This document shows positions 113-41,495 of a stretch of DNA of 64,000 nt, piece after piece. Origin of the DNA: Chlamydiales bacterium (GTDB lineage Bacteria; Chlamydiota; Chlamydiia; Chlamydiales; JACKPQ01). The notes below the pieces were generated by a model, which was not told the DNA's origin, searched no databases, and saw only the letters and a list, made by a program, of their open reading frames with translations. The position numbers and the translations under genes are program-made. The DNA lies in assembly GCA_024233435.1 (NCBI GenBank), contig JACKPQ010000001.1:260829-324828 (forward strand), read 5' to 3'. Numbering within the stretch: position 1 is the first letter of the stretch; every line of letters begins with the position of its first letter.

Positions 113-162
113 CTTTACACTCTTGCTACAAGTAAAAAATAGATTTACTTGAGAGGAAGGGT

Positions 163-1023
163 ATGAACAAGAAGATCCGAATAGCACTGGGTATTTGCCT
201 TTTCATTACAGTTGTTTCTCTTCCTGTTTTTTTTATTGCAACACACAATGTCGATGTGCTCGACCCCAAGGGGATTATTGCGGATCAGCAGCGGCATCTT
301 TTGATCGTTGCTTCATCGCTTATGCTAGTTGTTGTGATTCCCACATTTTTTATGCTGTTGTTTTTTGCTTGGAAGTACCGCGAGCATAAAGGATCTAAAT
401 ACTCTCCTGATTGGGACTTTAATTTTTTAGCAGAGATTTGTTGGTGGGGTGTTCCTTTTGTCATTATCGTGGTTTTGAGCATCATCACATTTCAAACAAG
501 TCACTCCTTAAATCCTTTTAAGCCTTTAGAAAGCGATAAAAAGCCCATCGAGATTCAAGTGATCGCTCTACAATGGAAATGGCTTTTTATTTATCCTGAG
601 CAAGGGATTGCAACGGTTAACTATATCGAATTTCCCAAAGATACGCCGGTCAATTTCGAAATCACTGCCGATGCTCCGATGAATTCATTTTGGATTCCTC
701 AGCTTGGTGGTCAGATTTACGCGATGCCGGCAATGCGCTCGAAGCTGCACTTGATGGCAGATGAGCTGGGTTCCTATACGGGTGTTTCAGCTAATATTAG
801 TGGGTCAGGTTTTGCTGGAATGAAATTTACGGCTAAGGCCACGACTGATCAAGAATTTCAAAACTGGGTTTCTCAAGTGCGTGGATCGTCAAAAGCCTTG
901 GGGATGATGGAGTATGAAAATCTTGTGTTGCCAACAGAATATGTCCCCGTTTCTTACTATAGATTGCAAAAATACGATCTGTTCGATGCGGTTATCATGA
1001 AATACAAAATGCCAAGCAAGTGA
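163..1023 (+). CDS. cyoA: Quinol oxidase (bo3-type) subunit II
   Basis: Two N-terminal TM helices. The cupredoxin-domain segment [58 protein letters not shown] is nearly collinear with E. coli CyoA and lacks the CuA Cys/His ligands. First gene of the cyoABCD order. Confidence 0.9.
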
Positions 1024-1030
1024 GATTGAG

Positions 1031-2986: not shown

Positions 2987-3558
2987 CACACGAGCATCAT
3001 GATCCTTATGAGAAAACCATTTTTGGATTTTGGGTATATCTGCTGACAGATTTTATCATGTTCGCAACACTATTTGCTGTCTACGCGGTTTTACGCGACA
3101 GCACATTTGGCGGCCCAGGAGCAAAAGATCTGTTTAATCTACCTCTTGTTTTAGTTCAAACGCTACTCCTGTTGGGGTGTAGTTTGACAAGTGGAGTTGC
3201 AAGTGTTTATGCTCACCGGGGTAACAAAAATGGCACTTTGCTCTACTTTGCTATCACCTTTGCGTTAGGCTTTATTTTTCTATGGATGGGACTTGCTGAT
3301 TTTCATCGCTTGATTGCAATGGATGCAAGTTGGAAAGTCAGTGGCTTTCTCTCCGGATATTTCTCGCTAGTTGGAACGCACACAGTCCATATTCTAATTG
3401 GACTTGCCTGGATTGTTGTTCTGCTGCTACCCGTCATCAAACAAGGGCTAAATGATGTACACATTAAGCGGATTACATGCCTTCGGATGTTTTGGCAATT
3501 TATGAACATCATTTGGATCTTTATTTATACGATTGTCTACTTAGTGGGGGTGAACTGA
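2983..3558 (+). CDS. cyoC: Quinol oxidase subunit III
   Basis: 191 aa, 5 TM. ATGA overlap with cyoB. Size, position and hydrophobic profile fit CyoC. Confidence 0.85.
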
Positions 3559-3559
3559 T

Positions 3560-3877
3560 ATGGACCAGAAAAATAATGTGTGGAACACAAGCTTTAAGCC
3601 GCTTTTTATAGGGTTTGGATTATCACTGGTTTTAGTTTTATTCGTTTATGGTGTCGTCGTTTACGATTTCTTGGAAACGAGTTTAGAATTTCCCGCAATC
3701 ATCTTTTTAGGGGCTTTGCAAGCAGTCCTACAACTGATCTATTTCTTCCATGTTGGGCTTGAATCAAACTCCAAATGGAACCTTCTGATGCTGCTATTTA
3801 TGATCTTTGTCGTATTCATCATCGTAGGAGGATCCATCTGGATCATGTACAACTTAAACTACGACCTTATGATCTAA
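3560..3877 (+). CDS. cyoD: Quinol oxidase subunit IV
   Basis: 105 aa, 3 TM, starting 1 nt after the cyoC stop. Called from operon position. Confidence 0.7.
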   Translation: MDQKNNVWNTSFKPLFIGFGLSLVLVLFVYGVVVYDFLETSLEFPAIIFLGALQAVLQLIYFFHVGLESNSKWNLLMLLFMIFVVFIIVGGSIWIMYNLNYDLMI

Positions 3878-3902
3878 CCGAACTCCATGAAATGAAGTTC
3901 GG
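3878..3902. terminator. Hairpin between convergent cyoD and the Cys-rich lipoprotein gene
   Basis: ccgaact (3878-3884) pairs with agttcgg (3896-3902), with an 11-nt loop. It starts directly after the cyoD TAA. No clear U-tract on either strand. Confidence 0.3.
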
Positions 3903-3918
3903 ATCAAAACTCTGGCCT

Positions 3919-4152
3919 TTAGTCTTTTGGTGCTGGACAGGTCTGTTTCGGCTCTGAGCATGTCTTTTTTGGTGCTGGACATGTAGGCGTCTCATTCTTC
4001 TTGCAGGCACAGCCTTTGCTGCAGCCGCATACTTCTTTGCATACGCACTCTATCTTATTGCAGTCTTCTTTAACTTCTTTTTCAACTTTAGCACACCCAA
4101 ACAAACAGGTGCACAATGCTATGAAAGCAATTTTTTTCTTGCATTGAATCAT
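3919..4152 (-). CDS. Small cysteine-rich lipoprotein (metallothionein-like / OmcA-like)
   Basis: ATG at 4152 with GGAGGA 6 nt upstream. Signal peptide MIQCKKKIAFIALCTCLFG followed by a lipobox Cys. The mature 58 aa carry 11 Cys in the pattern C-x4-CxC-x3-CxC-x3-CxC, followed by three TC(P/S)(A/E)PK repeats. Confidence 0.6.
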   Translation of the reverse strand: MIQCKKKIAFIALCTCLFGCAKVEKEVKEDCNKIECVCKEVCGCSKGCACKKNETPTCPAPKKTCSEPKQTCPAPKD

Positions 4153-4174
4153 AATGTTCCTCCATCTTGAACAT

Positions 4175-5047
4175 ATGGAAAAAGCAATAAATATACAACT
4201 GTTTCGCACATATTTTCAACTCGCAAAACCGGGGATTGTCTTTGGAAATGCAATGACAGCTGCCGGAGGTTTCTTTCTAGCAGCCCGGGGCAGCATTGAT
4301 GTGGTGACTCTGTTTGGAGCATTGATCGGACTTTGCTTTATTATGGGTTCTGGTTGTGTCTTTAACAATTACTTTGATCGAGCCCTTGATAAGCAGATGA
4401 AGCGCACTCAAATGCGCGCGCTTGTCAAAGGACTTGTAACGGTAAAGCAGAGTATTATCTACGCTCTTATCCTGCTTGCACTAGGCATCCTTTTTCTTGT
4501 GAGTTTTACCAATCCGCTAGCCCTAGGCATTGCCTTAGTTGGCTTTGTGATGTATGTGGTTGTCTATACTTATCTCAAGTATCGTACAAGGCACGCAACT
4601 TTAATAGGAAGCATTGCAGGAGCTGTCCCGCCCTTAGTTGGTTATTGCGCAGTCAAAGGCTCACTAGATCAGGCAGGGCTTCTTATTTTTACCATCATGG
4701 TGCTGTGGCAGATGCCTCATTTTTTTGCGATCTCTATCTACCGGCTAAAAGAATATACAAAAGCTAAGATTCCGTTGCTGCCCGTTGTCAAGGGAGTTAA
4801 AGCTACGAAAATCCAAATGGTGATCTACGCGGTTGCATTTTGTATCGCCATGGCGATGTTATCCGTATTGGGATATACAAATAGGCTCTATCTGATTGGA
4901 ACTTCATTTGTTGCCCTCTATTGGCTTTTTCTTTGTGTGCAAGGCTTTAAATGCGCAAATGATGTCAAGTGGGCTCGCAAAGTCTTTGGCTACTCGCTAG
5001 TTGTCGTTATGACATTTAGTTTAATGATCCCTTTTTGTTTAAGTTAA
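4175..5047 (+). CDS. cyoE: Protoheme IX farnesyltransferase (heme O synthase)
   Basis: UbiA-family polytopic protein with NNYFDRALDKQMKRTQMRAL (the Asp-rich prenyltransferase motif). The ORF opens at 4154. I prefer ATG 4175 but the start is uncertain. Confidence 0.9.
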   Translation: MEKAINIQLFRTYFQLAKPGIVFGNAMTAAGGFFLAARGSIDVVTLFGALIGLCFIMGSGCVFNNYFDRALDKQMKRTQMRALVKGLVTVKQSIIYALILLALGILFLVSFTNPLALGIALVGFVMYVVVYTYLKYRTRHATLIGSIAGAVPPLVGYCAVKGSLDQAGLLIFTIMVLWQMPHFFAISIYRLKEYTKAKIPLLPVVKGVKATKIQMVIYAVAFCIAMAMLSVLGYTNRLYLIGTSFVALYWLFLCVQGFKCANDVKWARKVFGYSLVVVMTFSLMIPFCLS

Positions 5048-5061
5048 TTCCAGGAGGCTGC

Positions 5062-5568
5062 ATGAGCGAAGTAAAATTCAAAGGTAAACCGACAAGGATT
5101 GTCGAGGGTTTTCCAAACATTGGAGATCAAGCCAAAGACTTTGAGCTTTTAAGGCCCGATTTAAGCACTGCTGGACTTAAAGATTTTGATGGCAAGATCA
5201 AACTGCTCAATATTTTTGTGAGTTTGGATACACCGGTCTGTGCAAAATCAATAACAGCCTTTGACACTGCCTCCAAAGCTTTTATGGATCTCATTGTACT
5301 GAACATTAGTATGGATTTGCCGTTTGCAGCTTCCCGCTTTTGCATATCATCACAGATGGAGCAAGCCGTTACGTTATCTACATTTCGTAGCGCGTTTCCT
5401 GATGACTATGGAGTGAGAATCGCTGATGGTCCGCTAAAAGGGCTCTGTGCTCGAGCGATCATCCTTTTAGGAAAGGATAACCGTGTGATCTACACCGAGC
5501 TTGTCGAAGAGATCACACAAGAGCCAAACTACGGCGCTGTTTTAGACGCAATCAAGCAGGTGGTCTAA
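5062..5568 (+). CDS. tpx: Thiol peroxidase (atypical 2-Cys peroxiredoxin)
   Basis: SLDTPVCAKS peroxidatic-Cys motif and Tpx-like length. AGGAGG precedes ATG 5062. Confidence 0.9.
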   Translation: MSEVKFKGKPTRIVEGFPNIGDQAKDFELLRPDLSTAGLKDFDGKIKLLNIFVSLDTPVCAKSITAFDTASKAFMDLIVLNISMDLPFAASRFCISSQMEQAVTLSTFRSAFPDDYGVRIADGPLKGLCARAIILLGKDNRVIYTELVEEITQEPNYGAVLDAIKQVV

Positions 5569-6884
5569 CCGCGGCCGCGTTTTTGAGGGCCGCGCCTCTT
5601 TTGGAAGCTTGACTTAGGGGCAAAAGATCGCTTGTTACCACCACCACCGCCACCTTTACGAGGGCCTTGTGGTTTGTTGTTAGACGGGCGACGCGGGCCT
5701 TTATTGCTGCGTGGGCCTTGTGAGTCTGATGCCTGCTTAGGCTTTTTACGTGGCTCAAGTCCTGGTACTTCCACAACGCTAATTGATTGACCCGTAAATT
5801 TTTCAATCTGTCTGATCAAGCTAGCATCACGTCCGCCTGCAAAGGAAAGGGCTATGCCTTTTGATCCAGCTCTGCCTGTTCGACCAATGCGATGAACATA
5901 ATCTTCGATGTGGTAGGGAAGGTCAAAGTTAATCACGTGGGTGATTGATTGCACGTCAATACCTCTTGCTGCAACATCGGTTGCGACAAGGGTCGTGATT
6001 TTTCCAGCCTTTAGCTGAGCAATTGTCCTTGTACGCTGACGCTGGTTCATGTCACCGTGAAGGGCAGCTGATAGGTGGCCTTTGTCTTTTAGCTCGCTGA
6101 CTAAGTGGTCAGCATGGCGTTTGGTTGATGTAAAAATGATGGTGTTTTCAACTTCGTCAGTGTTAAGGATGTGGTCCAATAACTTGTTTTTATGGTTGAT
6201 GTCATCAACGTAGTGAAGCCTTTGCTGGATGTTTTCATGCTTTGCATGTTTGGCATGGATGGCAATTTCAATGGGGTTATCCATCAGCTCTTCTGAGAGC
6301 TTAATGATCTTTTTTTCTAGCGTGGCTGAAAAGAGTAAAACTTGTCTCCCTTTAGGCGTAGCGTTGACAATCTGCTTAACAGGCTGAATAAAGCCCATAT
6401 CAAGCATGCGGTCTGCTTCATCAAGAACGACCATTTCAACAGACGATAGATCGATCTTTTTACGGGTTAGGTAGTCGATGAGTCTGCCAGGTGTGGCAAT
6501 GAGAATCTCGTAGGGGCGAGAGAGTTTGCTCAGTTGTTTGTGGTAGGGGACGCCTCCGCTCACGCAGACAGTTTTAACGCGATTCAAATATTTGCTATAT
6601 ATTTCTGCTTGAGTAGCAATCTGCATTGCAAGTTCACGTGTAGGAGCAAGGACTAAGACGGTGGGTCCCTTGCCTTTTCGGTGCTCAGTTTTAGCCAAGC
6701 GGTTCATAGCAGGCAATAGAAAGGCGGCGGTTTTACCGGTACCTGTTTGGGCTGAGGCTCTTATGCTGTGGCCTGCCAGAATTTTAGGGATAGCTTCTTT
6801 TTGAATTTCTGTGGGCTCAGTGTAGCCAGCTTCAGAAATCGATTGCAGAACCTTTGGGTCTAAGTCTAAATTATCAAAAAACAT
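5565..6884 (-). CDS. DEAD-box ATP-dependent RNA helicase with an Arg/Gly-rich C-terminal tail
   Basis: Motifs AQTGTGKTAAF, PTRELA, VLDEADRML, SAT and HRIGRTGRAG. The tail reads ...GPRKGGGGGGNKRSF...KRRGPQKRGRG. Confidence 0.9.
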   Translation of the reverse strand: MFFDNLDLDPKVLQSISEAGYTEPTEIQKEAIPKILAGHSIRASAQTGTGKTAAFLLPAMNRLAKTEHRKGKGPTVLVLAPTRELAMQIATQAEIYSKYLNRVKTVCVSGGVPYHKQLSKLSRPYEILIATPGRLIDYLTRKKIDLSSVEMVVLDEADRMLDMGFIQPVKQIVNATPKGRQVLLFSATLEKKIIKLSEELMDNPIEIAIHAKHAKHENIQQRLHYVDDINHKNKLLDHILNTDEVENTIIFTSTKRHADHLVSELKDKGHLSAALHGDMNQRQRTRTIAQLKAGKITTLVATDVAARGIDVQSITHVINFDLPYHIEDYVHRIGRTGRAGSKGIALSFAGGRDASLIRQIEKFTGQSISVVEVPGLEPRKKPKQASDSQGPRSNKGPRRPSNNKPQGPRKGGGGGGNKRSFAPKSSFQKRRGPQKRGRG

Positions 6885-6971
6885 TCAAAACTTCATTGTT
6901 GTATTGTTAGTGCTCTCTATCGTATCACAGCTTGGCTATTAAATGATAGACATGGATGAGGATTAACGAGT

Positions 6972-7433
6972 CTAGCAGTTGGAAATATGTCTAGCTGTTG
7001 AAGTGTTAGGCTGATCAAACTCATTAAGGATTAGAGTGTTATCATGACGTTCGATAGAGGGATCAATGTTAATAGAGGGATCAATGTTAACAGAAGAATC
7101 GCTATTGCTTGGGATAGGAGAGTTTGCAAAATGAAGAAACTGAGCTCCTAAGAGGTTTATAGCATGAGTTTGCTCTATTGAGGCCAGCTTATCATGCATT
7201 AGCACGACGGCAATGACCTCTTGATCAGAGAGACTGAGCTGTTCAGAGCGAGTCTGGCGATGGTGGCTAGTAATATTTACAGCAAAACAGAGGACCATGT
7301 TTGTGGTTCTGTCCTGTACCGAAAATCCCTCTACTGCTTGGCTTGGAGTTTCTAGATCTCTAAGAAGTGCCTGAGCAAGTGTAATCGGATTTTCAGGAGC
7401 AAGGGGTTGATTAACTTGTAAGTATCTTGGCAT
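6972..7433 (-). CDS. Hypothetical protein, 153 aa, acidic
   Basis: ORF only. ATG start 6 nt after the stop of the upstream ORF. Contains the tandem peptide SVNIDPSINIDPSI. No recognised motif. Confidence 0.5.
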   Translation of the reverse strand: MPRYLQVNQPLAPENPITLAQALLRDLETPSQAVEGFSVQDRTTNMVLCFAVNITSHHRQTRSEQLSLSDQEVIAVVLMHDKLASIEQTHAINLLGAQFLHFANSPIPSNSDSSVNIDPSINIDPSIERHDNTLILNEFDQPNTSTARHISNC

Positions 7434-7439
7434 AAAACT

Positions 7440-7832
7440 TTAGCGTGCAATTGTTTGTTGTGAATCATTAGTTGTAGATGGTGCATATTCAAGTTGTCGA
7501 CAAGCGGCCTCAAAATCACATAGATGTTTAGGAAACTTATCTTGGAGTGCCCGAGCAACGATCTTAATGGATTCGCAATCCTCAACACTAAGCTTTGGTT
7601 GTTGTGAGCTAGGCTTTGGTTGTTGTGGGCTAGATGGTATTATTCTTTCTGAATAAAAGTCCTTGCGGCCCTTTCTTGTAGCTATGAAAGTGATGAAACT
7701 AGTGGCGTATAAGCTTACAGTCTTATCTGTGGCTTGCGTCCTAATAGCTTTCTCCAAGTAATTTGCAAAAGCTAGGGGGCCAGCTCTTTCAGCTAGAAAG
7801 CGAGTGCTTAATCGATCAATATTAGCTGCCAT
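7440..7832 (-). CDS. Hypothetical protein, 130 aa
   Basis: ORF only. Contains the tandem peptide SSPQQPKP/SSQQPKL. Preceded by a sigma70-like promoter. Confidence 0.5.
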   Translation of the reverse strand: MAANIDRLSTRFLAERAGPLAFANYLEKAIRTQATDKTVSLYATSFITFIATRKGRKDFYSERIIPSSPQQPKPSSQQPKLSVEDCESIKIVARALQDKFPKHLCDFEAACRQLEYAPSTTNDSQQTIAR

Positions 7833-7861
7833 ATCAATTATTTATTTAGTTTAATAAGTTC

Positions 7862-7890
7862 ATTATGAACAAATGGAAATTAAAAGTCAA
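7862..7890 (-). promoter_or_regulatory. Candidate sigma70 promoter for the 130-aa/153-aa ORF pair
   Basis: Minus strand reads TTGACT (7890-7885), a 17-nt spacer, then CATAAT (7867-7862). It abuts the stop codon of the upstream carboxypeptidase gene. Confidence 0.4.
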
Positions 7891-9357
7891 TCATTTGTAT
7901 TTGTTAGTAAGGTACTGGCGGTAGGGTTGTGAAGATAGTGGTGATCCAGTGACGATCTGACAAAGTTCAGGGGCGCTGTAGAGGCGGCCGTGGCTGTGAA
8001 TTTGCTCTTTAAGCCAGGCGGTGATGAAGCGCAGATCGCCTGAGGCGATGCGGCTGGTGTAGTCAGGGTAGGTTTTCGTGAAGGTGGCAAAAAATTGCGC
8101 TGCGTAGAGATTCCCTAGAGAATAGGTGGGGAAGTAGCCGACATTGCCGCATGCCCAGTGCATGTCTTGCAAACATCCCAGGGCGTCATTTGGGGGCGTG
8201 ATCCCAAGATAGTCTTGCATTTTAGCATTCCAGGCGTCGGGGAGGTCTTTCGGATCAAGGGTATTGGTGAGCAGCTCTTTTTCAAGCTCATAGCGCAGGA
8301 TGACGTGGAGTGTGTATGTAATCTCGTCAGCATGGACGCGGATTAGCGAGGGGTGCACGCGGTTGATGGTTTGGTAGAAGTTATCGAGGGAAAAGTTTTG
8401 CAGTTGGTTGAAAGTCTTTTGAAGTTTAGGGTAGGCATATTCCCAAAATGGGCGGCTTTGTCCAATGATGACTTCCCAAAAACGGGATTGTGATTCATGA
8501 ATGCCTAAGGAAATGGAGTCGCAAAGGGGAGTTCCTGCAAACTTTATTGGCAGGCCTCGCTCATAAAGACAATGGCCGCCCTCGTGCATGACAGCTGAGA
8601 TGTTTGGAATAGGTGTGTCTGTTGTAACATGGGTTGTCATCCGCACATCTGTTGGATCAAGGGTTGTGCAAAAAGGATGAGCTGACATGTCCAGGCGCGT
8701 GTGATGAGGCTCGAGTCCCATTTCTTGGATGAGATCAGCAACATAGCTCATTTGAGCCTCGATGGGATAGGGGCCTGGTGGGAGTGATGTGGGATTGGAT
8801 GTGCTGCTGCTTGTCAGTTCGATAAGAAAGGGTTTTAGCTCATTAAAAAGTGTGTCAATTTGCTCTGCAGTAGCATTTGGCTCATATTCATCTAAAAGAG
8901 CGTCGTAAGGGTGCTCCTTATAACCGAAATGCTCGGCCCTTTCTTGAGAGAGCTCAAAAATGGTTTTTAGGTGAGGACAAAAGGCTTTAAAGTTGTTGTT
9001 TTCACGCGCAATTTGCCAGGCGTGGACTGCTTCAGCACAGGTGGCTGTCCACTTCTCTACAAATCGTTTGGGAAGTTTGGTCGCTTTGTCAAAATCGCGC
9101 TTCCACAAGTTGGCAGCAGCACTTTCTTCTTTGCTTAGATCTTTACAAGCGAGTAGTTCACTTAGAGCCTGCTCAAATTGAGGAGAGATGCTTTCTTGAT
9201 GTCGAAGGCCTGCAATGTATTCTTTTTGGGCAGATCGCGCTTTGATCCCAGCTTGAGGCATATGGGTTTCTTGATCCCACCCAAGTAGAGCGCTGACCTG
9301 ATTTAGGATGTAGGCTGGGCGATAGGCTGCTTTTGTTTTCTCAAAGAGCTTGTGCAT
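7891..9357 (-). CDS. Carboxypeptidase Taq-type metallopeptidase (MEROPS M32)
   Basis: HEGGHCLYE zinc motif, HPF, DVRMTT and HESQSRFWE motifs typical of M32. 488 aa. Confidence 0.9.
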   Translation of the reverse strand: MHKLFEKTKAAYRPAYILNQVSALLGWDQETHMPQAGIKARSAQKEYIAGLRHQESISPQFEQALSELLACKDLSKEESAAANLWKRDFDKATKLPKRFVEKWTATCAEAVHAWQIARENNNFKAFCPHLKTIFELSQERAEHFGYKEHPYDALLDEYEPNATAEQIDTLFNELKPFLIELTSSSTSNPTSLPPGPYPIEAQMSYVADLIQEMGLEPHHTRLDMSAHPFCTTLDPTDVRMTTHVTTDTPIPNISAVMHEGGHCLYERGLPIKFAGTPLCDSISLGIHESQSRFWEVIIGQSRPFWEYAYPKLQKTFNQLQNFSLDNFYQTINRVHPSLIRVHADEITYTLHVILRYELEKELLTNTLDPKDLPDAWNAKMQDYLGITPPNDALGCLQDMHWACGNVGYFPTYSLGNLYAAQFFATFTKTYPDYTSRIASGDLRFITAWLKEQIHSHGRLYSAPELCQIVTGSPLSSQPYRQYLTNKYK

Positions 9358-31785: not shown

Positions 31786-32015
31786 AAAAACCAAAACTCA
31801 CAAACGAGATTTTGACAAAACTCTTTCGCAATAACTTTGAGCTTGCTCTGTATGCGATGGAAATTGCACGCCGCAACATCAAAGCTGGCAAAGAATTTAC
31901 ACTCGAGTCACTACTTACCGAGGTGCAAAATCACCCGCTGAAAGGTGATTTAGAAGAGCTTTTGGCTTCAAATAAACGAGCTGATGAAGCAAAGGCCGCT
32001 GAGGATGTTGCCTAA
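31782..32015 (+). CDS. rpoZ: Probable RNA polymerase omega subunit
   Basis: NNFELALYAMEIARRNIKAG resembles the omega motif NRFDLVLVAARRARQ. The gmk-rpoZ linkage is common. Confidence 0.55.
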   Translation: MKKPKLTNEILTKLFRNNFELALYAMEIARRNIKAGKEFTLESLLTEVQNHPLKGDLEELLASNKRADEAKAAEDVA

Positions 32016-33648
32016 GAGGGTTCTTATAACAGCCGCTTTGCCCTACGCAAACGGCCCGCTGCACTTTGGACACATTGCCGGTTGTTATCTGCCAGCGGAT
32101 GTGCATGCGCGCTTTCAGCGCATGCTGGGCGTGAAAACAGCCTTTATCAGTGGATCTGACGAGTATGGCGTCGCAATCACCTTAAGCGCTGAGCAAGAGG
32201 GGCGTAGTCCCCAAGAGCATGTCGATATCTATCACAAGATCAATCAAAAACTGTTCGAGCAATTGAACATTTCATTTGATCACTACTCTCGCACAACCAC
32301 ACCCATCCACACCAAAACAGCCCAAGAATTTTTCCTCACCCTCCATAAAAACGGCTACATTGAAGAAAAAGAAACCGAGCAACTTTTTTCCGAGGCTGAT
32401 AATCGCTTTTTAGCCGATCGCTATGTTATTGGGACTTGCCCAAGATGCAAATACCCTGAAGCCCGGGGTGATGAATGCACATCTTGTGGGGCTTCATACG
32501 AGGCTACAGATCTTATTGATCCTCGATCAAAAATCTCGAATGCACCACTCATCCTCAAAAAAACGACCCACTGGTTTATGCGCTTTGATAAATTTAAAGA
32601 TCAGCTACAAGAGTGGATTAAAGATAAGCCCTGGAAGAATAACGTTTTAAAATTCGCTCAGCACTACATTGATAACCTTCAGCCGCGCGCCATTACACGC
32701 GATTCAGAGTGGGGTATTCCTGTACCACTCGAACATGCAAAGGGCAAAGTCCTCTACGTGTGGTTTGATGCGCCCATCGGTTACATCTCCATGACCAAAG
32801 AATGGAGTCCTGAGCATTGGAAAGACTTTTGGCTTGATCTCGATACAAAACTGATCAACTTTGTTGGCAAAGACAACATCCCTTTTCACGCAATTTTCTT
32901 CCCAGCAATGCTCATGGGCACAAATGAGCTTTATAAACTCGTCGATGATCTTCCTGCTAATGAATTCTTGCAGCTCGAAGGACGTCAATTTAGCAAATCA
33001 GCAAACTGGACCATTGATCTTAACCGCTTTTTTCAAAACTTCACAGCCGATCAAATCCGCTATGTCCTTGCTGCAAATGCCCCCGAGTCTCAAGATAGTG
33101 AATTCACTTGGATTGACTTTAAGAATCGCTGTAACTCTGAGCTAGTTGGCAAACTAGGCAATTTTGCCAACCGCTCGCTGACATTTCTCAATCGCCAGCT
33201 CGAAGGCACAGCGCCAAAAGCCACCCTCTCACAAGAAGACGAGACCTTCCTATCCCAATGCCATGACCTGCTAAGCCAAATCAAAGATTCCTATACTCAC
33301 TATCATCTGCGCAAAGCCTCTCAGCTTCTCATGGAGCTTGCCCAAACCGGCAACGTCTATTTTGACCACAAGCAACCCTGGAAGGACAAACAAAGCGATG
33401 CCACCAAAGCAACCCTTTATTGCTGCCTGGAGTGTCTCAAATGTCTAGCGATCGCCGCCTATCCCATCATGCCTGTGGCAGCACAAGGCCTTTGGAAGCT
33501 TCTTGGATTTACATCTGAAATGACCATCTGGGATCAACCACCATTTCCCCCAGGCCAAAAACTCCCCGAGCCATCAGTCCTCTTCCAAAAAGTCGACGAC
33601 GACCTCATCGCCTCCGAAATCGAAAAATTACATTTATTTCTTAACTAA
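32005..33648 (+). CDS. metG: Methionyl-tRNA synthetase
   Basis: HIGH motif (PLHFGHIAG), KMSKS-like RQFSKS, and zinc knuckle CPRCKYPEARGDECTSCG. I prefer ATG 32005 over 31984. Confidence 0.95.
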   Translation: MLPKRVLITAALPYANGPLHFGHIAGCYLPADVHARFQRMLGVKTAFISGSDEYGVAITLSAEQEGRSPQEHVDIYHKINQKLFEQLNISFDHYSRTTTPIHTKTAQEFFLTLHKNGYIEEKETEQLFSEADNRFLADRYVIGTCPRCKYPEARGDECTSCGASYEATDLIDPRSKISNAPLILKKTTHWFMRFDKFKDQLQEWIKDKPWKNNVLKFAQHYIDNLQPRAITRDSEWGIPVPLEHAKGKVLYVWFDAPIGYISMTKEWSPEHWKDFWLDLDTKLINFVGKDNIPFHAIFFPAMLMGTNELYKLVDDLPANEFLQLEGRQFSKSANWTIDLNRFFQNFTADQIRYVLAANAPESQDSEFTWIDFKNRCNSELVGKLGNFANRSLTFLNRQLEGTAPKATLSQEDETFLSQCHDLLSQIKDSYTHYHLRKASQLLMELAQTGNVYFDHKQPWKDKQSDATKATLYCCLECLKCLAIAAYPIMPVAAQGLWKLLGFTSEMTIWDQPPFPPGQKLPEPSVLFQKVDDDLIASEIEKLHLFLN

Positions 33649-33748: not shown

Positions 33749-34741
33749 ATGCCAATAAATTACAAAGTCGCAACATATAATACTGCATCAAATAGTGATT
33801 ATGCGCTCATACATGAGCAGAAGTATTCTAGAGATGCAAAATTGGGCCAAGTAGCATTTCGTGCTTTAGCAGATATGGGTATTGATTTCTTCTGCCTGCA
33901 AGAGGCTACCACATATGAAAAAGGCGATGTTTTTTTTGAAAAAAGCTCATGGATAAAAGATGATATACATTCCTCCCACACTAAAAGGTATGACTATATC
34001 CATAATACAAAGGGAATAGCTCTTGTATGGAATAATGAACAGTTTACCATAGTGGATAACTCAGTAAGGCGAAAGCAAGACTACCTTGTTGCTGATTTTT
34101 ATGATAAAACAAATCACAAAATCATACGCCTTGCTTCTATTCATATCAGCGGTTATTCGTTTAACGACCATCTTGGTAAGCAAAAATCTGAGAAAGAGTT
34201 TCAGGAGGATTTAGCAGACCAACACAAAACTGTTAGTCAGTTAATTCAAGACCTTAAATCAGATAACCGAGCAGATTTCACAATTATTGGCTCAGATACG
34301 AATTCAATTCCGGCTATTTATCCTGGACTACACCAAGCATTTGAATCGTCTGGGTATTCGTATGATAAAGAAAATTTTGAGCCAACAAATTATTTTGCTT
34401 TTTCGGCGTCTCCTAATAATAGTTGTTATAGAAGACTTGATTATATTTTTAACTCGTGGTTTCTGACTGCAAAACAATTAGATAGGCCTGATATAGGTTC
34501 ATTTAAGCTTAAGGACACCGAAAACCCAAGTGATCATATACCCGTTATTTATTCGATGACACAGAGTTTCATTTCGAGGTTGTTAAAGGTCCTTTGCGAT
34601 TTTTTTACTTGGAGGCCTTCAGTTGAAATTGAGCAATACAAAAGTTATAAAGATGAAACGCAGGGTTATAGCAGTATACTGGACCCCACAATGAGCTTTG
34701 TTGATGGACATGTGTCTAAAACTATAAAGATAAAGAGATAA
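33749..34741 (+). CDS. Endonuclease/exonuclease/phosphatase (EEP) family protein, AT-rich, effector-like
   Basis: EEP motifs VATYNTAS, FFCLQEAT, ASIHISG, GSDTNS and PSDHIPV. No signal peptide. The first 60 nt contain 20 G+C, against 30/60 in two core-gene samples I counted. Confidence 0.8.
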   Translation: MPINYKVATYNTASNSDYALIHEQKYSRDAKLGQVAFRALADMGIDFFCLQEATTYEKGDVFFEKSSWIKDDIHSSHTKRYDYIHNTKGIALVWNNEQFTIVDNSVRRKQDYLVADFYDKTNHKIIRLASIHISGYSFNDHLGKQKSEKEFQEDLADQHKTVSQLIQDLKSDNRADFTIIGSDTNSIPAIYPGLHQAFESSGYSYDKENFEPTNYFAFSASPNNSCYRRLDYIFNSWFLTAKQLDRPDIGSFKLKDTENPSDHIPVIYSMTQSFISRLLKVLCDFFTWRPSVEIEQYKSYKDETQGYSSILDPTMSFVDGHVSKTIKIKR

Positions 34742-34789: not shown

Positions 34790-35013
34790 CAAAACTTTAC
34801 ATCTGACCTGATCCGCTATGCTCTCGCTACCAATGTGCCTGAATCCCCAGATAGCAGATTTATCTGGCTTTGAGTGCGTTGGCAAGCTGGGCAACGTCTA
34901 TTTTGACCACAAGCAGCCTAGGAAGAGGAAACACAAGCGATGCCACTAAAGCAACTCTCCATTCCTACGACGACCACATCGCCTCTGAAATCGAAGAGCT
35001 TCGAATCAATTAA
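34790..35013 (+). pseudogene. Decayed duplicate of the metG 3' end
   Basis: Three blocks align by hand to metG 33034-33117, 33139-33162 plus 33349-33425, and about 33597-33648, at roughly 80-90% identity. There are two internal deletions and in-frame stops. The copy ends in its own TAA at 35011-35013. Confidence 0.8.
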
Positions 35014-35239
35014 GCTATTCGTGACCGTCTGCTATAATGAAAGGCATGGGATTCCCACCAAAATTCACTCTTTCTAAGCCAATTTGAAACTCTTTAAAAT
35101 TGATGAGTATAAAGGACCAAACTGGGCGTCGTATGGCACTAACTTCTAACATCAATCGGACCGTGGGGGGCTGGAAACTTGTCTCAAGTTGTGAAGATAA
35201 GAGAATAAGACCGCTTAGGCTTTTTCAAACAGGCGTGTG

Positions 35240-36505
35240 TTAATGACTATAGCCGGTTGAGAGAAGGCGGCTACCATTGCAATCGAGGATCAGAAAGCGG
35301 TGAGCTTCTGTAGGCTGAGGCCATTGAAAACGCTCTAATTGTTTGTTGATGACTTCTTCTGCAATGGGGTGTTTTCTCGATTTGTTTCTCTTGCCTAGCT
35401 CGATTTTGTTTGGATGGAAGACAACAAGTGTGACTAGAGCATGATAATTTTCAGCTATGCGAATGATTTTTTCCCTCATCTCGCGTCGAAGATTTGTTGC
35501 ATCCCAGACGATTCGTTCTTTTTTACGCAGTTTTTCTTTTAGGCTCTCCATAGCGATGTTCAAAACTAGCGCGTTATTGCTTTGGTCTCCACGGTTTTTT
35601 GAGTGTAGCTCGCGTAGATCGTCTAGGGAAATTAAAGTGTGATCGGGAAGGGTTTGTTGAGCCCAAGTGCTTTTGCCTGATCCTCCTATTCCGCAGGTTA
35701 GAACTAACTCTGGATGGTGCTCTAAGTGCGGATATGCACGGGCAACAGCCTCATATGGAGTATGGATTAATCCATTTTCAAAGTCTTTAGCTCCATATCC
35801 TAATACATAGTCTATCAGCTCTGTAGAAGAGTTGGGCAACTCGTTTTTGATGGTGTCAGGCCATTCGCTATAAGGCCCTGCTTTTCCCCAAAGGCCATAC
35901 TCTTCAACATAGAGCCGGAACATATCGATATGCCCAACTTGCAGCTCTTTATCAATACATAAACGCCCGAGCATGTCAGCTTTTGTAAGGTAATACAGAA
36001 GTTCGAGGTCGGCTTGTCGAGCTAGCTTGTAGTACAAGGGCTTTCCAGCACCAGTAATGACTAGACGTTTTGGCACGATGTGGGCTGCTACAAGCTGCAG
36101 AATTTGATAGAGAACCCTATATGGGAGCCCACAATCTAGCAGGAGGGGCGCCAAATAAGAAGCTCCCATTTCCTCATGGTGTGGTGCCACAATACGCATC
36201 TGGCCATCTATTTCTTTTTCACGGGTTGTTAATGGTTTTGCGATATCATGAAAAGCTGTGGCCAGTATAAGAGCTAGCCGCCTCTGTGGCGTCAAAACAG
36301 CTTGTTCTTGGTTGAGAAGCTTGTAGAGTTCTTGAAGAACCCAGGAAGTGTGAACATAAACATCACCCTCAGCGTGCCAGTGAGGATCTTGAGATGTGTC
36401 TTTAAGCTTGCATAGCAAGGGGATAAAGGGAGAAAAGGTCTCTACAATTTCTTCTAAGGAAGGATTTTCACCATTGCTTATTCTATTTAATAAGATTTTA
36501 AGCAT
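35240..36505 (-). CDS. Bifunctional end-healing enzyme: N-terminal HD phosphoesterase plus C-terminal P-loop polynucleotide 5'-kinase (HD-Pnk architecture)
   Basis: HD domain signatures HWHAEGDVYVHT, FHDIAKP and HHEEMG. Kinase signatures GIGGSGKST, SLDDLR and WDATNLRREMR (T4 Pnk-like). ATGCTTAA overlap with the ligase gene. Confidence 0.8.
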   Translation of the reverse strand: MLKILLNRISNGENPSLEEIVETFSPFIPLLCKLKDTSQDPHWHAEGDVYVHTSWVLQELYKLLNQEQAVLTPQRRLALILATAFHDIAKPLTTREKEIDGQMRIVAPHHEEMGASYLAPLLLDCGLPYRVLYQILQLVAAHIVPKRLVITGAGKPLYYKLARQADLELLYYLTKADMLGRLCIDKELQVGHIDMFRLYVEEYGLWGKAGPYSEWPDTIKNELPNSSTELIDYVLGYGAKDFENGLIHTPYEAVARAYPHLEHHPELVLTCGIGGSGKSTWAQQTLPDHTLISLDDLRELHSKNRGDQSNNALVLNIAMESLKEKLRKKERIVWDATNLRREMREKIIRIAENYHALVTLVVFHPNKIELGKRNKSRKHPIAEEVINKQLERFQWPQPTEAHRFLILDCNGSRLLSTGYSH

Positions 36506-37145
36506 TTGGGTCCTTTAGCTTGTTAGGCACAATCTCCAACTCCATCCAGTGTTTGTTACTTTGTACATGGCCTTTTCGAACCCATTTAGCTACAGACTTA
36601 TGAAAATCACAATATGAAAATGCGTCTCGTATTCGCACAATGTATCCTTCGATCTCTTCGGTATTGAAATTCAAATTTCGAATTAGCTGCTCATTCCACA
36701 CCCCTTCAAAAAGAGTTCTTGGCGTCGGGATTCCTAAAAGCTGTGCCCATTCTAGGGTTTCATCCCAAGATAGGCAAATATTTTTCTCGTTCCAAACTGA
36801 AAATAAATAAAAGAACCCCTCCAAATTATCGTAGGCAATCGAATGTGTGGCATAAACGTTTTCACCACAGAGGCGCCAATTGTCTGGGATTTCTTGTTGA
36901 ATCCGGGCGTGGAGTTGTTTGGCTAGGCTTCTTGAAGGGTGATGCCCGCTGTCAATTGAGCGAGCATGCATTCCATCTGTGTAGAGGGTTGTATTTTCTC
37001 CATCGAGCTTTTCGGTAATGACAACTTGCTTATTTTTAAACTGATTTGTGTGAGTCATCTTGATGTCGTCATCGGTATTTCCAGGCGACCAGGGAAGATG
37101 GGGTGTTCGCGGGTATTTCCACCTCATATTGTGTTTGGGTTCCAT
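36498..37145 (-). CDS. ATP-dependent RNA/polynucleotide ligase, minimal nucleotidyltransferase domain (Rnl2-like superfamily)
   Basis: Covalent NTase motifs I EKLDGEN, III LCGENVYA, IIIa FYLFSVW, IV EGYIVR and V VAKWVRKGHV, with a KYPRTPHL N-terminus. I prefer start ATG 37145 (7 nt after the recD2 stop) over the ORF-track 37283. Confidence 0.8.
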   Translation of the reverse strand: MEPKHNMRWKYPRTPHLPWSPGNTDDDIKMTHTNQFKNKQVVITEKLDGENTTLYTDGMHARSIDSGHHPSRSLAKQLHARIQQEIPDNWRLCGENVYATHSIAYDNLEGFFYLFSVWNEKNICLSWDETLEWAQLLGIPTPRTLFEGVWNEQLIRNLNFNTEEIEGYIVRIRDAFSYCDFHKSVAKWVRKGHVQSNKHWMELEIVPNKLKDPNA

Positions 37146-37152
37146 ACCAACA

Positions 37153-39333
37153 TCACGCTGAATCAACAGAGGCGCTACAAGCAGACAGATCAAAAGAAAG
37201 CATAAGCTTGTCCATAAGACCTGTATGGCGCAAGAAGGCTTCGTTGTTTTTAATGGCAATGGCCAGGGCTTTTTTGGTGCCAATGAGAATCACGCGTTTT
37301 TTGCCACGGGTGATGCCGGTATAGAGCAAATTGCGGTAAAGAAGTTTGAAGTGGGAAGTATGCACTGGGATCACAACGCAGGGGCACTCGCTTCCTTGGT
37401 ACTTGTGAATTGAAACAGCGTAGGCTAAGACAAGCTCATCGAGCTCGGAAAAATCATAGGGGACTGTGAGCCCTTCAAAATCGACTTGGACCTCTTGATC
37501 AACCGTGTCAATTTTAACAATGCGTCCCACATCTCCATTGAAGACCTTTTTGTCATAGTTATTGCGGATTTGCATCACCTTATCCCCAAAATGAAAGCGG
37601 CGACCCATGCGCATAAGGGGGTTTTTGGAAGGGTTTAGCGTTGACTGAAGCACATGGTTGAGATTTTCTGTCCCAATAGGGCCTTTTTTCATAGGTGCAA
37701 GAACTTGAATATCATTAATAGCATCATAGCCATATTTTTCAGGAATACCTTTAGACACGAGGAAGTTGATTTTAGCTAAAATTTGCTCGGGCTCTTGTTC
37801 TTCGATAAAGGCAAAATCGCTTTTTTCTTCATATTCAAGATCAGGAAAGTAGCCTTTGTTGATGCTGTGGGCGCTGCGGATGATTTTTGAGCCTCGGGCT
37901 TGGCGAAAAATTTGAGTCAGACGTGTAACAGGGAGGACTTGTGACTCAATAATGTCTTTGAGAACCTTACCAGGGCCAACGCTTGGCAGCTGGTCAATGT
38001 CGCCAATAAGGATAACGCGCGCATTATCTGGGACAGCTTTTAGAAGGCTATACATCAACTGGGTGTCGATCATCGAAGCTTCGTCAATGATCAACAGGTC
38101 GCATGAAAGAGGATTTTCGCGGTTGCGTTTGAAGCCACCTTGTTGAAAATCAACCTCAAGAATGCTGTGAATGGTAAAGGCTTTACGACGGGTGATTTCG
38201 CTCATACGTTTAGCAGCGCGCCCTGTTGGAGCTGCAAGGATGACCTTGCTTGTAATTTTACTCAATATGGCAAGAATAGCTCGAGTGATCGTGCTCTTTC
38301 CTGTACCGGGGCCTCCAGTTAGAACATGCATCTTTTCACTGACGCTTTTTTTCACACCGTCGACCTGCTCGGGGGCTAAGTTAATGTAGAGTTTCTCCTG
38401 GACCCATTCGATGGCCTTTTCAATATCTAGATCACGGATAGAGCAGGGCTGGTCTGTTAAACGCTTGAGTTCGCGCACAATTCCAAGCTCTGCCATGAAA
38501 AGCGGCTTGATCCAAATTCGGCCTTGATCTTCAATAATGTGCTCATCTGTGACGAGTTTGGGCAAAGCATCTTCCACAAGCTTTGATTCAACTTCTAGCA
38601 TCTCGGTGACCCGCTCTAAAAGTTCATCTTTTGGAAAGCAGGTGTGGCCATCGCTACTGAGTTCCCAAAGCATATATTCAATGGCAGCCTCGATACGTAC
38701 AGGTGCATCTTTTGGAACGCCCAGTTTTTCGGCGATGCTATCTGCAGTTTTAAATCCCACGCCGTGAATTTCACGCGCTAGGCGATAGGGGTTATCTTGC
38801 ACCATATCGATGGCATCGTCGCTGTATTTACGATAAATTTTTTGCGCAAAAGAAGGGCTAATGCCATGGCCGCGCAAAAAGATAATCACATCGCGGATTG
38901 CTTTTTGCTCGCCCCAGCAATCTTGAATTTTTACAACGCGCTTTTCGCCAATGCCCTCAATTTCAAGGAGGCGGTAAGGAGTTTGGTCAATCACCTCCAA
39001 TGTTTTTACACCAAAGGCTTGCACGATTCTTTGGGCATAAACAGGCCCAATACCCTTCACCATTCCCGATTCAAGATATTTTTGAATTCCGATTACATCA
39101 GCTGGATAGTCGACCTCGTAGCTTGCAACTTCAAATTGCCTCCCAAAGGTAGGGTGGTGTTTCCATATGCCCTTTGCCCTTATCTTTTCGCCTGGGATGA
39201 TGCCTGGCATAGGGCCGACAACACAAGTGAGATCGGTGCATCGAGGCTGCTTTACGCGAGCTACGGTAAATCCTGTGTCCTCGCTAGAAAAAACAATTGA
39301 TTCAACAGAGCCAAAAAGATCATCCTGTTCCAT
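37153..39333 (-). CDS. recD: RecD2-type (RecD/YrrC-like) SF1B DNA helicase
   Basis: Walker A LTGGPGTGKST, LIIDEASMI and ILIGDIDQLPSVGPG. N-terminal HhH region and C-terminal SH3-like domain. First ATG at 39333 (the ORF opens at TTG 39357). Confidence 0.9.
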   Translation of the reverse strand: MEQDDLFGSVESIVFSSEDTGFTVARVKQPRCTDLTCVVGPMPGIIPGEKIRAKGIWKHHPTFGRQFEVASYEVDYPADVIGIQKYLESGMVKGIGPVYAQRIVQAFGVKTLEVIDQTPYRLLEIEGIGEKRVVKIQDCWGEQKAIRDVIIFLRGHGISPSFAQKIYRKYSDDAIDMVQDNPYRLAREIHGVGFKTADSIAEKLGVPKDAPVRIEAAIEYMLWELSSDGHTCFPKDELLERVTEMLEVESKLVEDALPKLVTDEHIIEDQGRIWIKPLFMAELGIVRELKRLTDQPCSIRDLDIEKAIEWVQEKLYINLAPEQVDGVKKSVSEKMHVLTGGPGTGKSTITRAILAILSKITSKVILAAPTGRAAKRMSEITRRKAFTIHSILEVDFQQGGFKRNRENPLSCDLLIIDEASMIDTQLMYSLLKAVPDNARVILIGDIDQLPSVGPGKVLKDIIESQVLPVTRLTQIFRQARGSKIIRSAHSINKGYFPDLEYEEKSDFAFIEEQEPEQILAKINFLVSKGIPEKYGYDAINDIQVLAPMKKGPIGTENLNHVLQSTLNPSKNPLMRMGRRFHFGDKVMQIRNNYDKKVFNGDVGRIVKIDTVDQEVQVDFEGLTVPYDFSELDELVLAYAVSIHKYQGSECPCVVIPVHTSHFKLLYRNLLYTGITRGKKRVILIGTKKALAIAIKNNEAFLRHTGLMDKLMLSFDLSACSASVDSA

Positions 39334-39402
39334 GGGCGTTACTGTACATGAGCGCAAAGCCTATTGCAATAAAAAGTGATTACTGGCAGAATAAATGAAT
39401 AT

Positions 39403-39475
39403 TCCGGATTAGCTCAGTTGGTAGAGCAACGGACTGTTAATCCGTTTGTCGCTGGTTCGAGTCCAGCATCCGGAG
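39403..39475 (+). tRNA. tRNA-Asn (anticodon GUU)
   Basis: Hand-folded cloverleaf: acceptor TCCGGAT/ATCCGGA, D arm GCTC/GAGC, anticodon arm ACGGA-CTGTTAA-TCCGT, T arm GCTGG-TTCGAGT-CCAGC, discriminator G. CCA is not encoded. Confidence 0.95.
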
Positions 39476-39480
39476 ACTTC

Positions 39481-39629: not shown

Positions 39630-39821
39630 CTACTTTCTCTTTAACTTTGGATTTTCTGTTAACAAACCAAAATCGTCAATCTTATAGCTGTCATACAACT
39701 TACGATAATGGGCTCCATTAGGAACATCCTCCGAGGCCTGCCGAACAGACTTATTAGCAGCCTTTTTCTTCGGCTTCTTATTCTCTTCACGGAAATAGGG
39801 TTTTCGGTGCGACCTGCTCAT
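39630..39821 (-). CDS. Small, highly basic hypothetical protein, 63 aa
   Basis: The ORF is MSRSHRKPYFREENKKPKKKAANKSVRQASEDVPNGAHYRKLYDSYKIDDFGLLTENPKLKRK. A diverged paralog lies at 41197-41445. Confidence 0.5.
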   Translation of the reverse strand: MSRSHRKPYFREENKKPKKKAANKSVRQASEDVPNGAHYRKLYDSYKIDDFGLLTENPKLKRK

Positions 39822-40040
39822 TTAAACCTCTTTTTAAATTGCTATTTGTAGGGTCACAAAGCTTTGAAGGGTCTTTTTTTATTTTTAATTCAGACCTGTG
39901 ATGTTAATATAAAATGCTATGCAAATGAAGTGAGGAAGCCGTATTCTTGCAGAATGGGCATAAGAACGGTTGCAATCCATTCAGCAAATCACTTATGATC
40001 GTCCAAAACAACTTTAGAAGGCATGCTAAAAAAGAAGCAA
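39688..40040. repeat. Direct repeat copy 1 (small basic gene plus its upstream region)
   Basis: Aligns by hand with 41264-41495. The 99-bp core 39924-40022 matches 41377-41475 at 92/99. Copy 1 carries an extra 120 bp (39804-39923) that is absent from copy 2. Confidence 0.8.
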
Positions 40041-41196: not shown

Positions 41197-41445
41197 CTAT
41201 AGAGAGTAAAGGAAATAGCTGCTGCAATTTCCTTGGAGCTCCCAATTCTTTTCATGGGTATGGCTGTCATGCAACTTACGATAGTGGATGCCATCATGAA
41301 CATCCTCCGAGGCCTGCCGAACAGACTTATTAGCAGCTTTTCTTGATTTCTTGTTCTCTTCATGAAAGTAGGGCTTAATGAAGTGAGAAAGCCGTTTTCT
41401 TGCAGAATGGGCATAAGAACGGTTGCACCCCATTGAGCAAATCAC
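41197..41445 (-). pseudogene. Diverged or rearranged paralog of the small basic protein gene
   Basis: ...HFIKPYFHEENKKSRKAANKSVRQASEDVHDGIHYRKLHDS... matches the 39630-39821 product. The N-terminus is fused to upstream repeat sequence (GTG start) and the C-terminus is unrelated. Which copy is ancestral is unclear. Confidence 0.4.
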
Positions 41446-41495
41446 TTATGATCGCCCAAAGCAACTTTAGAAGGCGTGAAAATCAAGGAATCAAA
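41264..41495. repeat. Direct repeat copy 2
   Basis: See copy 1. The repeat runs into the first codons of the MazG-like ORF. Copy 1 retains only a 19-codon stub of that start (ATGCTAAAAAAGAAG... at 40023). Confidence 0.8.

Follow-up and report, generated by a model that had tools for sequence, protein, structure and literature searches.

A ligase/HD-Pnk end-repair gene pair behind recD2 in a Chlamydiales genome is probably a mobile cassette in a variable slot

Introduction

In a Chlamydiales bacterium, the genes for a small ATP-dependent ligase-type adenylyltransferase and for HD-Pnk, a predicted fusion of an HD phosphoesterase with a 5′-kinase, follow the DNA helicase gene recD2 so closely that the three look like a single operon. 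This raises the question of whether the helicase is part of a nucleic acid end-repair module or happens to adjoin one. We analyzed a stretch of 64,000 nucleotides (assembly GCA_024233435.1, contig JACKPQ010000001.1, positions 260,829 to 324,828), hereafter the window. Direct reading of its sequence places recD2, the ligase gene and the HD-Pnk gene on the minus strand as three co-directional open reading frames (ORFs) from 39333 to 35240. A preliminary description of this locus had proposed a tightly packed operon with a precedent in Runella slithyformis, an insertion scar beside it, and a helicase-coupled break-repair module. The gene identities, the precedent, the scar and a probable operon stood up to our analysis, but the helicase-coupled module did not, as linkage to RecD2 was found only in the window's own species. 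The pair probably represents a widespread, horizontally mobile cassette for healing and sealing ends, an ordinary copy of which landed in a slot between metG and recD2, and its adjacency to recD2 would be a by-product of that landing rather than a conserved coupling.

The pair itself is not new, being a cassette known from R. slithyformis and Deinococcus radiodurans. In the Runella cluster, a putative ATP-dependent ligase ORF lies just upstream of HD-Pnk, with its 3′ end overlapping the HD-Pnk 5′ end, and genes for Tpt1 and a methyltransferase-HIT protein are also present; the Runella ligase (LIG) forms ligase-AMP, and none of the standard substrates tested was ligated by it (PMC6097658). The precedent had been named correctly, with the same gene order and ORF overlap. 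In D. radiodurans, DRB0100 is an adenylation-domain-only 'ligase' that is adenylylated at K40 and ligates neither DNA nor RNA, and it shares an operon with DRB0099 and DRB0098 (HD phosphatase plus kinase) (PMC1997131). A further paper discusses the DRB0100–DRB0099–DRB0098 operon as an RNA/DNA end-repair module, and its title names a possible defence module against toxic attack (PMC11833690).

Results

We retrieved the surroundings of HD-Pnk or ligase homologs in GTDB genomes, Joint Genome Institute (JGI) metagenomes, IMG/VR and individual contigs. A ligase of ≥40% identity was present in 173 of these loci, with flanks of at most 8 kb per side, and a RecD2-like gene (tblastn, E ≤ 1e-5) accompanied it in 2/173 only, namely L033 and L034. 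Their DNA is 98.9% and 100% identical to the window, respectively, which identifies both as the window's own species. No RecD2-like gene was present within those flanks in the 171 other ligase loci, 33 ligase/HD-Pnk pairs among them, or in the HD-Pnk loci outside the window species. The nearest other RecD2 (P0121, locus L028; 95% amino acid and 85% nucleotide identity) aligns with the window from 39375 to 37174 only, so that homology ends 19 nt before the recD2 stop; beyond this point, L028 carries an unrelated convergent ORF and no ligase. The RecD2 proteins of the window and L028 share the sequence ...MDKLMLSFDL, after which the last few residues differ. Downstream of the 74%-identity recD2 in L029 are genes for a 422-aa hypothetical protein and a permease, and recD2 in L030, likewise at 74% identity, is followed by a GFO_IDH_MocA-type gene. 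The 422-aa gene of L029 was considered as a relative of HD-Pnk and rejected.

The flanks of recD2 differed in all the relatives examined (L028, L029 and L030) and often held mobile or toxin–antitoxin-like genes: L029 has a zeta-toxin-like kinase and Fic, for example, and L030 a DDE transposase fragment together with an HI1420-downstream-type gene. In this group of chlamydiae, such differing flanks mark the surroundings of recD2 as a plasticity zone.

RecD2 of the window reaches 887.5 bits with TIGR01448 (helicase_RecD2), for which the cut-off is 500, over residues 16–715, and has the domains OB_YrrC, HHH_RecD2, AAA_19/30, SH3_13 and UvrD_C_2. Its nearest relatives are chlamydial, at 95% and then 73–76% identity. 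We read it as a full-length, ordinary housekeeping ortholog of a kind that occurs without the cassette across Chlamydiae.

These observations bear on the helicase-coupled module, in which RecD2 would unwind or present broken ends and supply nucleic-acid binding to a domain-poor ligase. Such a module would suit the tight packing of the genes (7–25 nt and −8 nt, with no terminator), a ligase family that has no nucleic-acid-binding domain and fails to ligate alone, for which a missing partner has been postulated (PMC1997131, PMC6097658), the link of the D. radiodurans homologs to radiation resistance (PMC6300522), and a junction kept in three assemblies of the species. However, the link is missing from 171 ligase loci and from L028, the nearest other lineage; a congener (L032, described below) has its cassette elsewhere, in an island; and RecD2 is a housekeeping protein found cassette-free across Chlamydiae. 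The survey of gene neighborhoods, which had been set in advance as the refutation test of this proposal, returned no RecD2 link, within flanks of up to 8 kb, in any genome outside the window's own species that carries the pair. We consider genuine helicase coupling very unlikely.

The two genes of the cassette, for their part, recur together. In 35 of the loci retrieved, the ligase gene directly precedes the HD-Pnk gene on the same strand, with a spacing of −42 to +39 nt in 22 of the other pair loci. A profile search of GTDB genome contigs with the HD-Pnk alignment yielded at least 22 loci, of which about 10 were true pairs, one of the patterns also matching generic HD domains; there were no chlamydial genomes among the matches listed from this search. 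Neither the ligase nor HD-Pnk was matched by any PADLOC model.

Within one chlamydial genus, the cassette occurs at two different sites. The second-closest ligase (P0242, 75% amino acid identity) is on a 922-kb contig (L032), where three housekeeping neighbours, a TRAM-domain protein, an ABC ATPase and thioredoxin reductase, are 90–95% identical to proteins of the window's metagenome-assembled genome (MAG); L032 therefore comes from a congener. There, a ~12.6-kb island (65–12650) between the SPOUT methyltransferase and TRAM genes encodes a 1813-aa RHS/YD-repeat protein, four small ORFs, an ankyrin-repeat protein and an IS630-type DDE_3 transposase, followed by the ligase and HD-Pnk. This HD-Pnk is disrupted by a frame shift, an in-frame stop and ~140 extra bases, and Pfam recognized neither the C-terminal tip of the RHS toxin nor the small ORFs behind it. 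In L195, which belongs to the window species by its exact TRAM protein, the SPOUT methyltransferase gene leads straight to a 156-aa ORF and the TRAM gene (site 2288–2324), and L032 and L195 are collinear, at 80% nucleotide identity, only from L032 position 12652 onward. L195 thus shows the site of the island to be empty in the window's species. The window and L032 cassettes share 70% DNA identity, compared with 85% for recD2 between the window and L028 and 80% for the L032/L195 flanks, which means that the cassettes, at their different loci, are more diverged than the genome background.

Other contexts vary as well. The closest HD-Pnk (P0002, L023; 62% identical, with a ligase at 72%) belongs to a pair directly behind the C-terminus of a polymorphic toxin (L023 1–1064; Pfam Ntox50, E 3.5e-25), and the small ORF between the toxin and the pair bears a precomputed MafI2 (immunity protein) tag, with no match in our own Pfam scan. 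In a Parachlamydiaceae MAG, the pair lies behind a divergent hypothetical gene. RtcB of the release-factor-associated type and PrfH are encoded immediately upstream of the pair in 3/22 loci (L002, L035 and L052; gene positions −3 to −1 relative to the ligase), and together with the ligase and HD-Pnk they may form a four-gene RNA repair cluster. The ligase family also matches 335 stretches in IMG/VR and has strong PHROG matches (phrog_34045 and phrog_24030).

On phage-like contigs, the same ligase clade (48–59% identical) is common without HD-Pnk (L115–L194 from IMG/VR and many of L035–L114). Among the neighbours that recur there, as read by eye, are a larger ATP-dependent ligase-like protein and HNH-like proteins, and a few loci also have an RtcB-like protein.

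We then turned to the gene junctions of the window (Table 1). The recD2 gene ends with a TGA at 37155–37153 on the minus strand. In the NCBI record of this MAG, the ligase is annotated from its second Met (ATG 37127, 209 aa, P0241), which makes the gap to recD2 25 nt instead of 7 nt; either start is compatible with the N-termini of homologs in a 31-sequence alignment. The ligase TAA is at 36500–36498 and the HD-Pnk ATG at 36505, with AAGGA 5 nt upstream of that ATG. The packing of the three genes is therefore as the preliminary description gave it, in coordinates and in geometry (7-nt spacer, 8-nt overlap), with the 25-nt gap as an alternative. Separate promoters or terminators between the genes were also looked for, and a consensus scan of the region matched none at either junction; across the region, the numbers of promoter- and terminator-like sites equalled the shuffled expectation (9 versus 9.2 expected; 6 versus 5.7). 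Because only 7–25 nt separate recD2 from the ligase and no terminator intervenes, read-through from the recD2 promoter is the most likely source of transcription, and the pair is likely co-transcribed with recD2. From the geometry of the ATGCTTAA overlap, HD-Pnk is likely translationally coupled to the ligase.

Alternatively, the cassette could be an independent transcription unit with a promoter within the recD2 3′ end, in which case only the ligase and HD-Pnk would be coupled and there would be no three-gene operon. The two-gene cassette moves into many contexts, including positions behind divergent or unrelated genes, so that in many places it must carry or acquire a promoter of its own. 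A sigma-70 consensus, which captures chlamydial promoters poorly, gave no minus-strand promoter-like match in the last 450 nt of recD2; the nearby minus-strand matches were only within the ligase gene, and with no terminator after recD2, read-through would occur in any case. We regard an independent unit as unlikely.

Table 1 Features of the metG–recD2 region and its flank (window coordinates).
Feature	Position	Strand	Remarks
metG	31984..33648	+	MCP5491672.1; conserved left border of the variable metG–recD2 slot
EEP-family gene	33749..34741	+	MCP5491673.1; convergent with the cassette, context and not part of it
Scar, decayed duplicated metG 3′ end	34790..34995	+	Three fragments; blastn of the window against itself
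EEP allele remnant	35170..35205	+	Last 12 codons of the alternative (L033) allele; tblastn, 12/12 identity
HD-Pnk (predicted)	35240..36505	-	421 aa; PF01966 + PF13671
Ligase/HD-Pnk overlap	36498..36505	-	ATGCTTAA, 8 nt; HD-Pnk start within the ligase 3′ end
Stand-alone ATP-dependent ligase-type adenylyltransferase (predicted)	36498..37145	-	215 aa; DRB0100/LigB-type; PF09414
Spacer	37146..37152	-	7 nt, recD2 TGA to first ligase ATG (37145); no Shine-Dalgarno-like sequence
recD2	37153..39333	-	SF1B DNA helicase, 726 aa from ATG 39333; TIGR01448
tRNA-Asn (GUU)	39402..39477	+	Divergent from recD2, 68 nt upstream of its ATG; ARAGORN; Rfam RF00005, 73.3 bits

The sole Pfam match of the ligase is RNA_ligase (E 3.4e-30, residues 40–189 of 215). 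Its motif I reads EK46LDGEN, with the codon of lysine K46 at 37010–37008, and the 54/54 invariant columns of the 31-sequence alignment are all present in it, including EK46LDGEN, CGE95N, F115, E166GYxVR171 and K187xVR190. AlphaFold2 models the protein as one compact domain (predicted local distance difference test (pLDDT) 90.9; predicted template modelling score (pTM) 0.88), with no residues beyond the nucleotidyltransferase domain and neither an OB nor a C-terminal nucleic-acid-binding domain. The motifs are thus complete and an extra C-terminal domain is absent, as had been claimed. The best Foldseek matches in the PDB were the nucleotidyltransferase domains of ATP-dependent RNA ligases, namely Naegleria NgrRnl, archaeal Rnl3, T4 Rnl2, T4 Rnl1 and fungal Trl1 (E ~1e-6 to 1e-4; identity 12–21%; query-normalised template modelling (TM) score ~0.5). 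Among matches with E ≤ 0.001, target-normalised TM-scores were 0.27–0.40 versus 0.43–0.54 when normalised by the query, the low target values meaning that the matches cover only the nucleotidyltransferase domains of longer ligases. Single-sequence and profile searches of PDB sequences with the ligase gave nothing significant.

The DRB0100 primers in PMC1997131 encode MRVKYP... and VVTE-K40-LDG, and the window ligase, read from its second Met, begins with MRWKYP... and also has its lysine at 40; this N-terminal signature and lysine spacing therefore put DRB0100 in the same family. On these features, we assign the ligase to the DRB0100/Runella-LIG type (Pfam RNA_ligase clade, KYPRTPHLPWS signature). 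Membership of the Rnl2 or Rnl5 family was rejected, the protein having neither the Rnl2 C-terminal domain nor the Rnl5 N-terminal OB domain.

HD-Pnk matches the Pfam HD family at 25.1 bits (cut-off 22; residues 50–147), AAA_33 at E 7e-24 and the kinase segment of TIGR04075 (bacter_Pnkp) at E 7.6e-19, and the nearest solved relative of its kinase domain is the Clostridium thermocellum Pnkp kinase (PDB 4jst, E 7.7e-13). The N-terminal HD phosphoesterase domain holds the H86-D87 dyad (36250–36245), and the C-terminal kinase domain holds the P-loop G272-T280 (GIGGSGKST; 35692–35666). Every invariant residue of a 17-sequence alignment is kept, including H44, H86-D87, H142 and D177 on the HD side, and the P-loop G272-x-x-G-x-GKS (K278-S279), D295, R298, D335 and R344 on the kinase side. 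Its 421 aa compare with 404–449 aa for homologs spanning 94–100% of the query. HMMER assignment, which the preliminary description had suggested for PF09414, HD and AAA_33, matched all three, and with these conserved residues it agrees with the proposed architecture of an HD phosphoesterase joined to a T4-Pnk-like kinase. The ligase lysine of KLDGEN and the kinase P-loop, on whose function that description had made its proposal depend, both appear intact in the sequence.

As to what is repaired, RNA breaks, caused by ribotoxins or stress damage, seem to us somewhat the likelier substrate. We lean this way because the ligase family and fold are those of RNA ligases, because RtcB–PrfH precedes the pair in some loci, because Ntox50 (L023) and the RHS toxin (L032) adjoin the two closest relatives, because Tpt1 is linked in Runella (PMC6097658), and because members of the ligase family abound on phage-like contigs and among PHROGs. 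RtcB–PrfH is described as a module repairing colicin-E3-cut ribosomes (PMC9223846, PMC9304027).

A rather unlikely though plausible alternative is that the cassette repairs DNA breaks with 3′-phosphate and 5′-OH ends, not RNA, and that the recD2 promoter provides a DNA-repair context; here the cassette does adjoin recD2. In work of Munir and Shuman from 2017, HD-Pnk is said also to heal DNA 3′-PO4 and 5′-OH ends, but reportedly it handles 2′,3′-cyclic and 2′-phosphate ends as well, which are RNA-specific. The DRB0100–DRB0099–DRB0098 operon of D. radiodurans is radiation-induced, and DRB0098 is needed for ionising radiation resistance, its mutants being radiation-sensitive (PMC6300522; PMC11833690). 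However, loss of DraRnl, a bona fide RNA ligase, causes radiation sensitivity too (PMC5397189). Against DNA repair also stand the fold and family of the ligase, which are nearest to RNA ligases, and the contexts of the pair elsewhere, which are RNA-related (RtcB–PrfH, Tpt1 and polymorphic toxins).

The landing site was compared among strains and relatives. The order gmk, a 77-aa ORF and metG is common to the window and L029, and in both metG and recD2 are 3–3.5 kb apart, with different cargo between them in L029. This spacing is consistent with the direct neighbourhood of metG and recD that the preliminary description gave for C. trachomatis. The metG–recD2 interval is thus a slot of variable content, in which the cassette is one occupant among several. 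The endonuclease/exonuclease/phosphatase (EEP) family gene that shares the slot in the window has a GC content of 0.356 and a GC content at third codon positions (GC3) of 0.305 versus a window GC of 0.44. Its allele in L033 (2679–3448, minus strand) is only 50% identical in amino acids, though the cassettes are ~99% identical, which suggests allele replacement or diversifying selection, as for a secreted effector or toxin. The EEP gene was also considered as a recurrent partner of the cassette and rejected, having been found only in the same species.

The insertion scar that had been claimed beside the cassette is real, consisting of metG 3′ fragments and a remnant of the EEP allele (Table 1). 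The fragments at 34790–34854, 34890–34966 and 34967–34995 correspond to 33034–33098 (74%), 33349–33424 (84%) and 33596–33624 (93%), respectively, and they also match the L029 metG by tblastx. The blastn homology between the window and L033 ends at 35170, downstream of HD-Pnk, where L033 continues into its EEP-family gene. What the scar records is the replacement of an EEP allele rather than the arrival of the cassette. A search for direct or inverted repeats on both sides of the cassette, such as target-site duplications or insertion sequence (IS) ends, found none. The cassette bears no compositional sign of recent transfer, with a GC of 0.43–0.44 and a GC3 of 0.40–0.43 versus the window GC of 0.44.

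The window and L033 differ at 30 of 2717 aligned bases. Of these differences, 21 fall in 37600–37861, within the ~290 nt upstream of 37600, and 9 in the remaining ~2430 nt, so that the final ~450 nt of recD2 belong with the cassette to one low-divergence block. The junction is older than the split, or exchange, between the window strain and L033. This mosaic divergence within recD2 (37600–37886 versus L033) indicates a recombination breakpoint. The idea that the drop in divergence coincides with the recD2/ligase junction was rejected, the breakpoint being near 37600, inside recD2. The ligase genes of the two strains differ by 1 synonymous change and the HD-Pnk genes by 4 synonymous and 1 non-synonymous changes; to judge from these counts, the cassette genes are intact and constrained.

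On the other side of recD2, an in-frame TTG at 39357 upstream of its ATG is the mechanical ORF start. Beyond the tRNA-Asn gene, two segments of ~80–110 nt (families D1 and D2) are repeated at 89% identity, 1.45–1.58 kb apart (39683–40034 and 41259–41487). They span a small, very basic ORF (63 aa, 39630–39821) and its degenerate second copy (41197–41445), and they bracket a 315-aa ORF without a family match, in a low-GC stretch just past tRNA-Asn. This repeat region may be a small island at tRNA-Asn.

Discussion

We have examined whether a ligase/HD-Pnk pair packed against recD2 forms a unit with the helicase. Our preferred reading is that, in one species-level Chlamydiales lineage, a mobile cassette arrived in the variable slot that separates two convergent genes, metG and recD2, and came to lie flush with the recD2 stop. 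By analogy with characterized relatives, the HD domain of HD-Pnk would remove 2′,3′-cyclic, 3′ or 2′ phosphates, leaving a healed 3′-OH end, and the P-loop kinase would phosphorylate 5′-OH ends to 5′-PO4; the ligase, adenylylated at K46, would then seal the healed ends. The pair would be transcribed by read-through from recD2, with HD-Pnk translated in coupling with the ligase.

Several points weigh against this account. Only self-adenylylation has been seen for Runella LIG and DRB0100 in vitro, so the sealing step is an assumption, and it is the packing of the genes that suggests co-transcription with recD2. The radiation phenotype of DRB0098 fits DNA repair and a meaningful pairing with a DNA helicase. 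The recD2–cassette junction is stable in three assemblies of the window species, which, together with the low-divergence block, implies that the arrangement is not being selected against. The survey drew on a limited sample, with flanks of at most 8 kb and many contigs shorter than that. One could further imagine a co-opted insertion, in which recD2 read-through ties the expression of the pair to the helicase, and RecD2 is the missing partner that handles strands for DRB0100-type ligases. If true, this would explain why such ligases self-adenylylate without sealing in vitro, and an outstanding question of biochemistry would be answered. The comparative data speak against this idea, and we hold it to be extremely improbable.

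On the preferred account, of a cassette landed by chance beside recD2, the locus adds a chlamydial example to the cassette of Runella and Deinococcus, and the fusion to recD2 would be a local accident. Its two sites in one genus, one of them with an empty counterpart and near an RHS toxin and a transposase, together with the Ntox50 and RtcB–PrfH neighbours, support the idea of a mobile countermeasure to RNA-targeting toxins. In these genomes, the metG–recD2 slot is a zone of plasticity.

Among known systems, the RtcB2–PrfH module for ribosome rescue and rRNA repair, which lies directly upstream of the pair in 3/22 loci, resembles the locus in its theme, the repair of damage by ribotoxins. Its enzymes and chemistry are of an unrelated kind, RtcB joining 3′-P to 5′-OH directly, and the module is not in the window. 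With NgrRnl/Rnl5, archaeal Rnl3 and T4 Rnl2, the ligase has in common the nucleotidyltransferase fold and motifs I, III, IIIa, IV and V, whereas it has none of the Rnl5 N-terminal OB domain, the Rnl2 C-terminal domain, or the dimerisation and C-terminal domains of Rnl3. The Pnkp/Hen1 system of C. thermocellum provides the nearest solved relative of the kinase domain (4jst) and follows the same logic of 5′ kinase, 3′ healing and adenylyltransferase ligase; unlike the window pair, it combines the three activities in one polypeptide, it has a binuclear metallophosphoesterase as phosphatase in place of an HD domain, and its partner is the Hen1 methyltransferase. The D. radiodurans operon, whose own feature is its induction by radiation, likewise begins with an adenylation-domain-only ligase (LigB/DdrP) with the KYP signature and K40 spacing and includes an HD and kinase partner, but a PARG/macro gene (DRB0099) separates the two, whereas in the window they overlap directly by 8 nt. 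The Runella cluster differs in having Tpt1 and methyltransferase-HIT genes upstream, where the window has recD2 and no Tpt1. As far as its description allows the comparison, LIG/HD-Pnk of Runella otherwise has the same two genes in the same order, with overlapping ORFs, an HD domain and a P-loop 5′-OH kinase in one protein, and a small ATP-dependent adenylyltransferase in the other.

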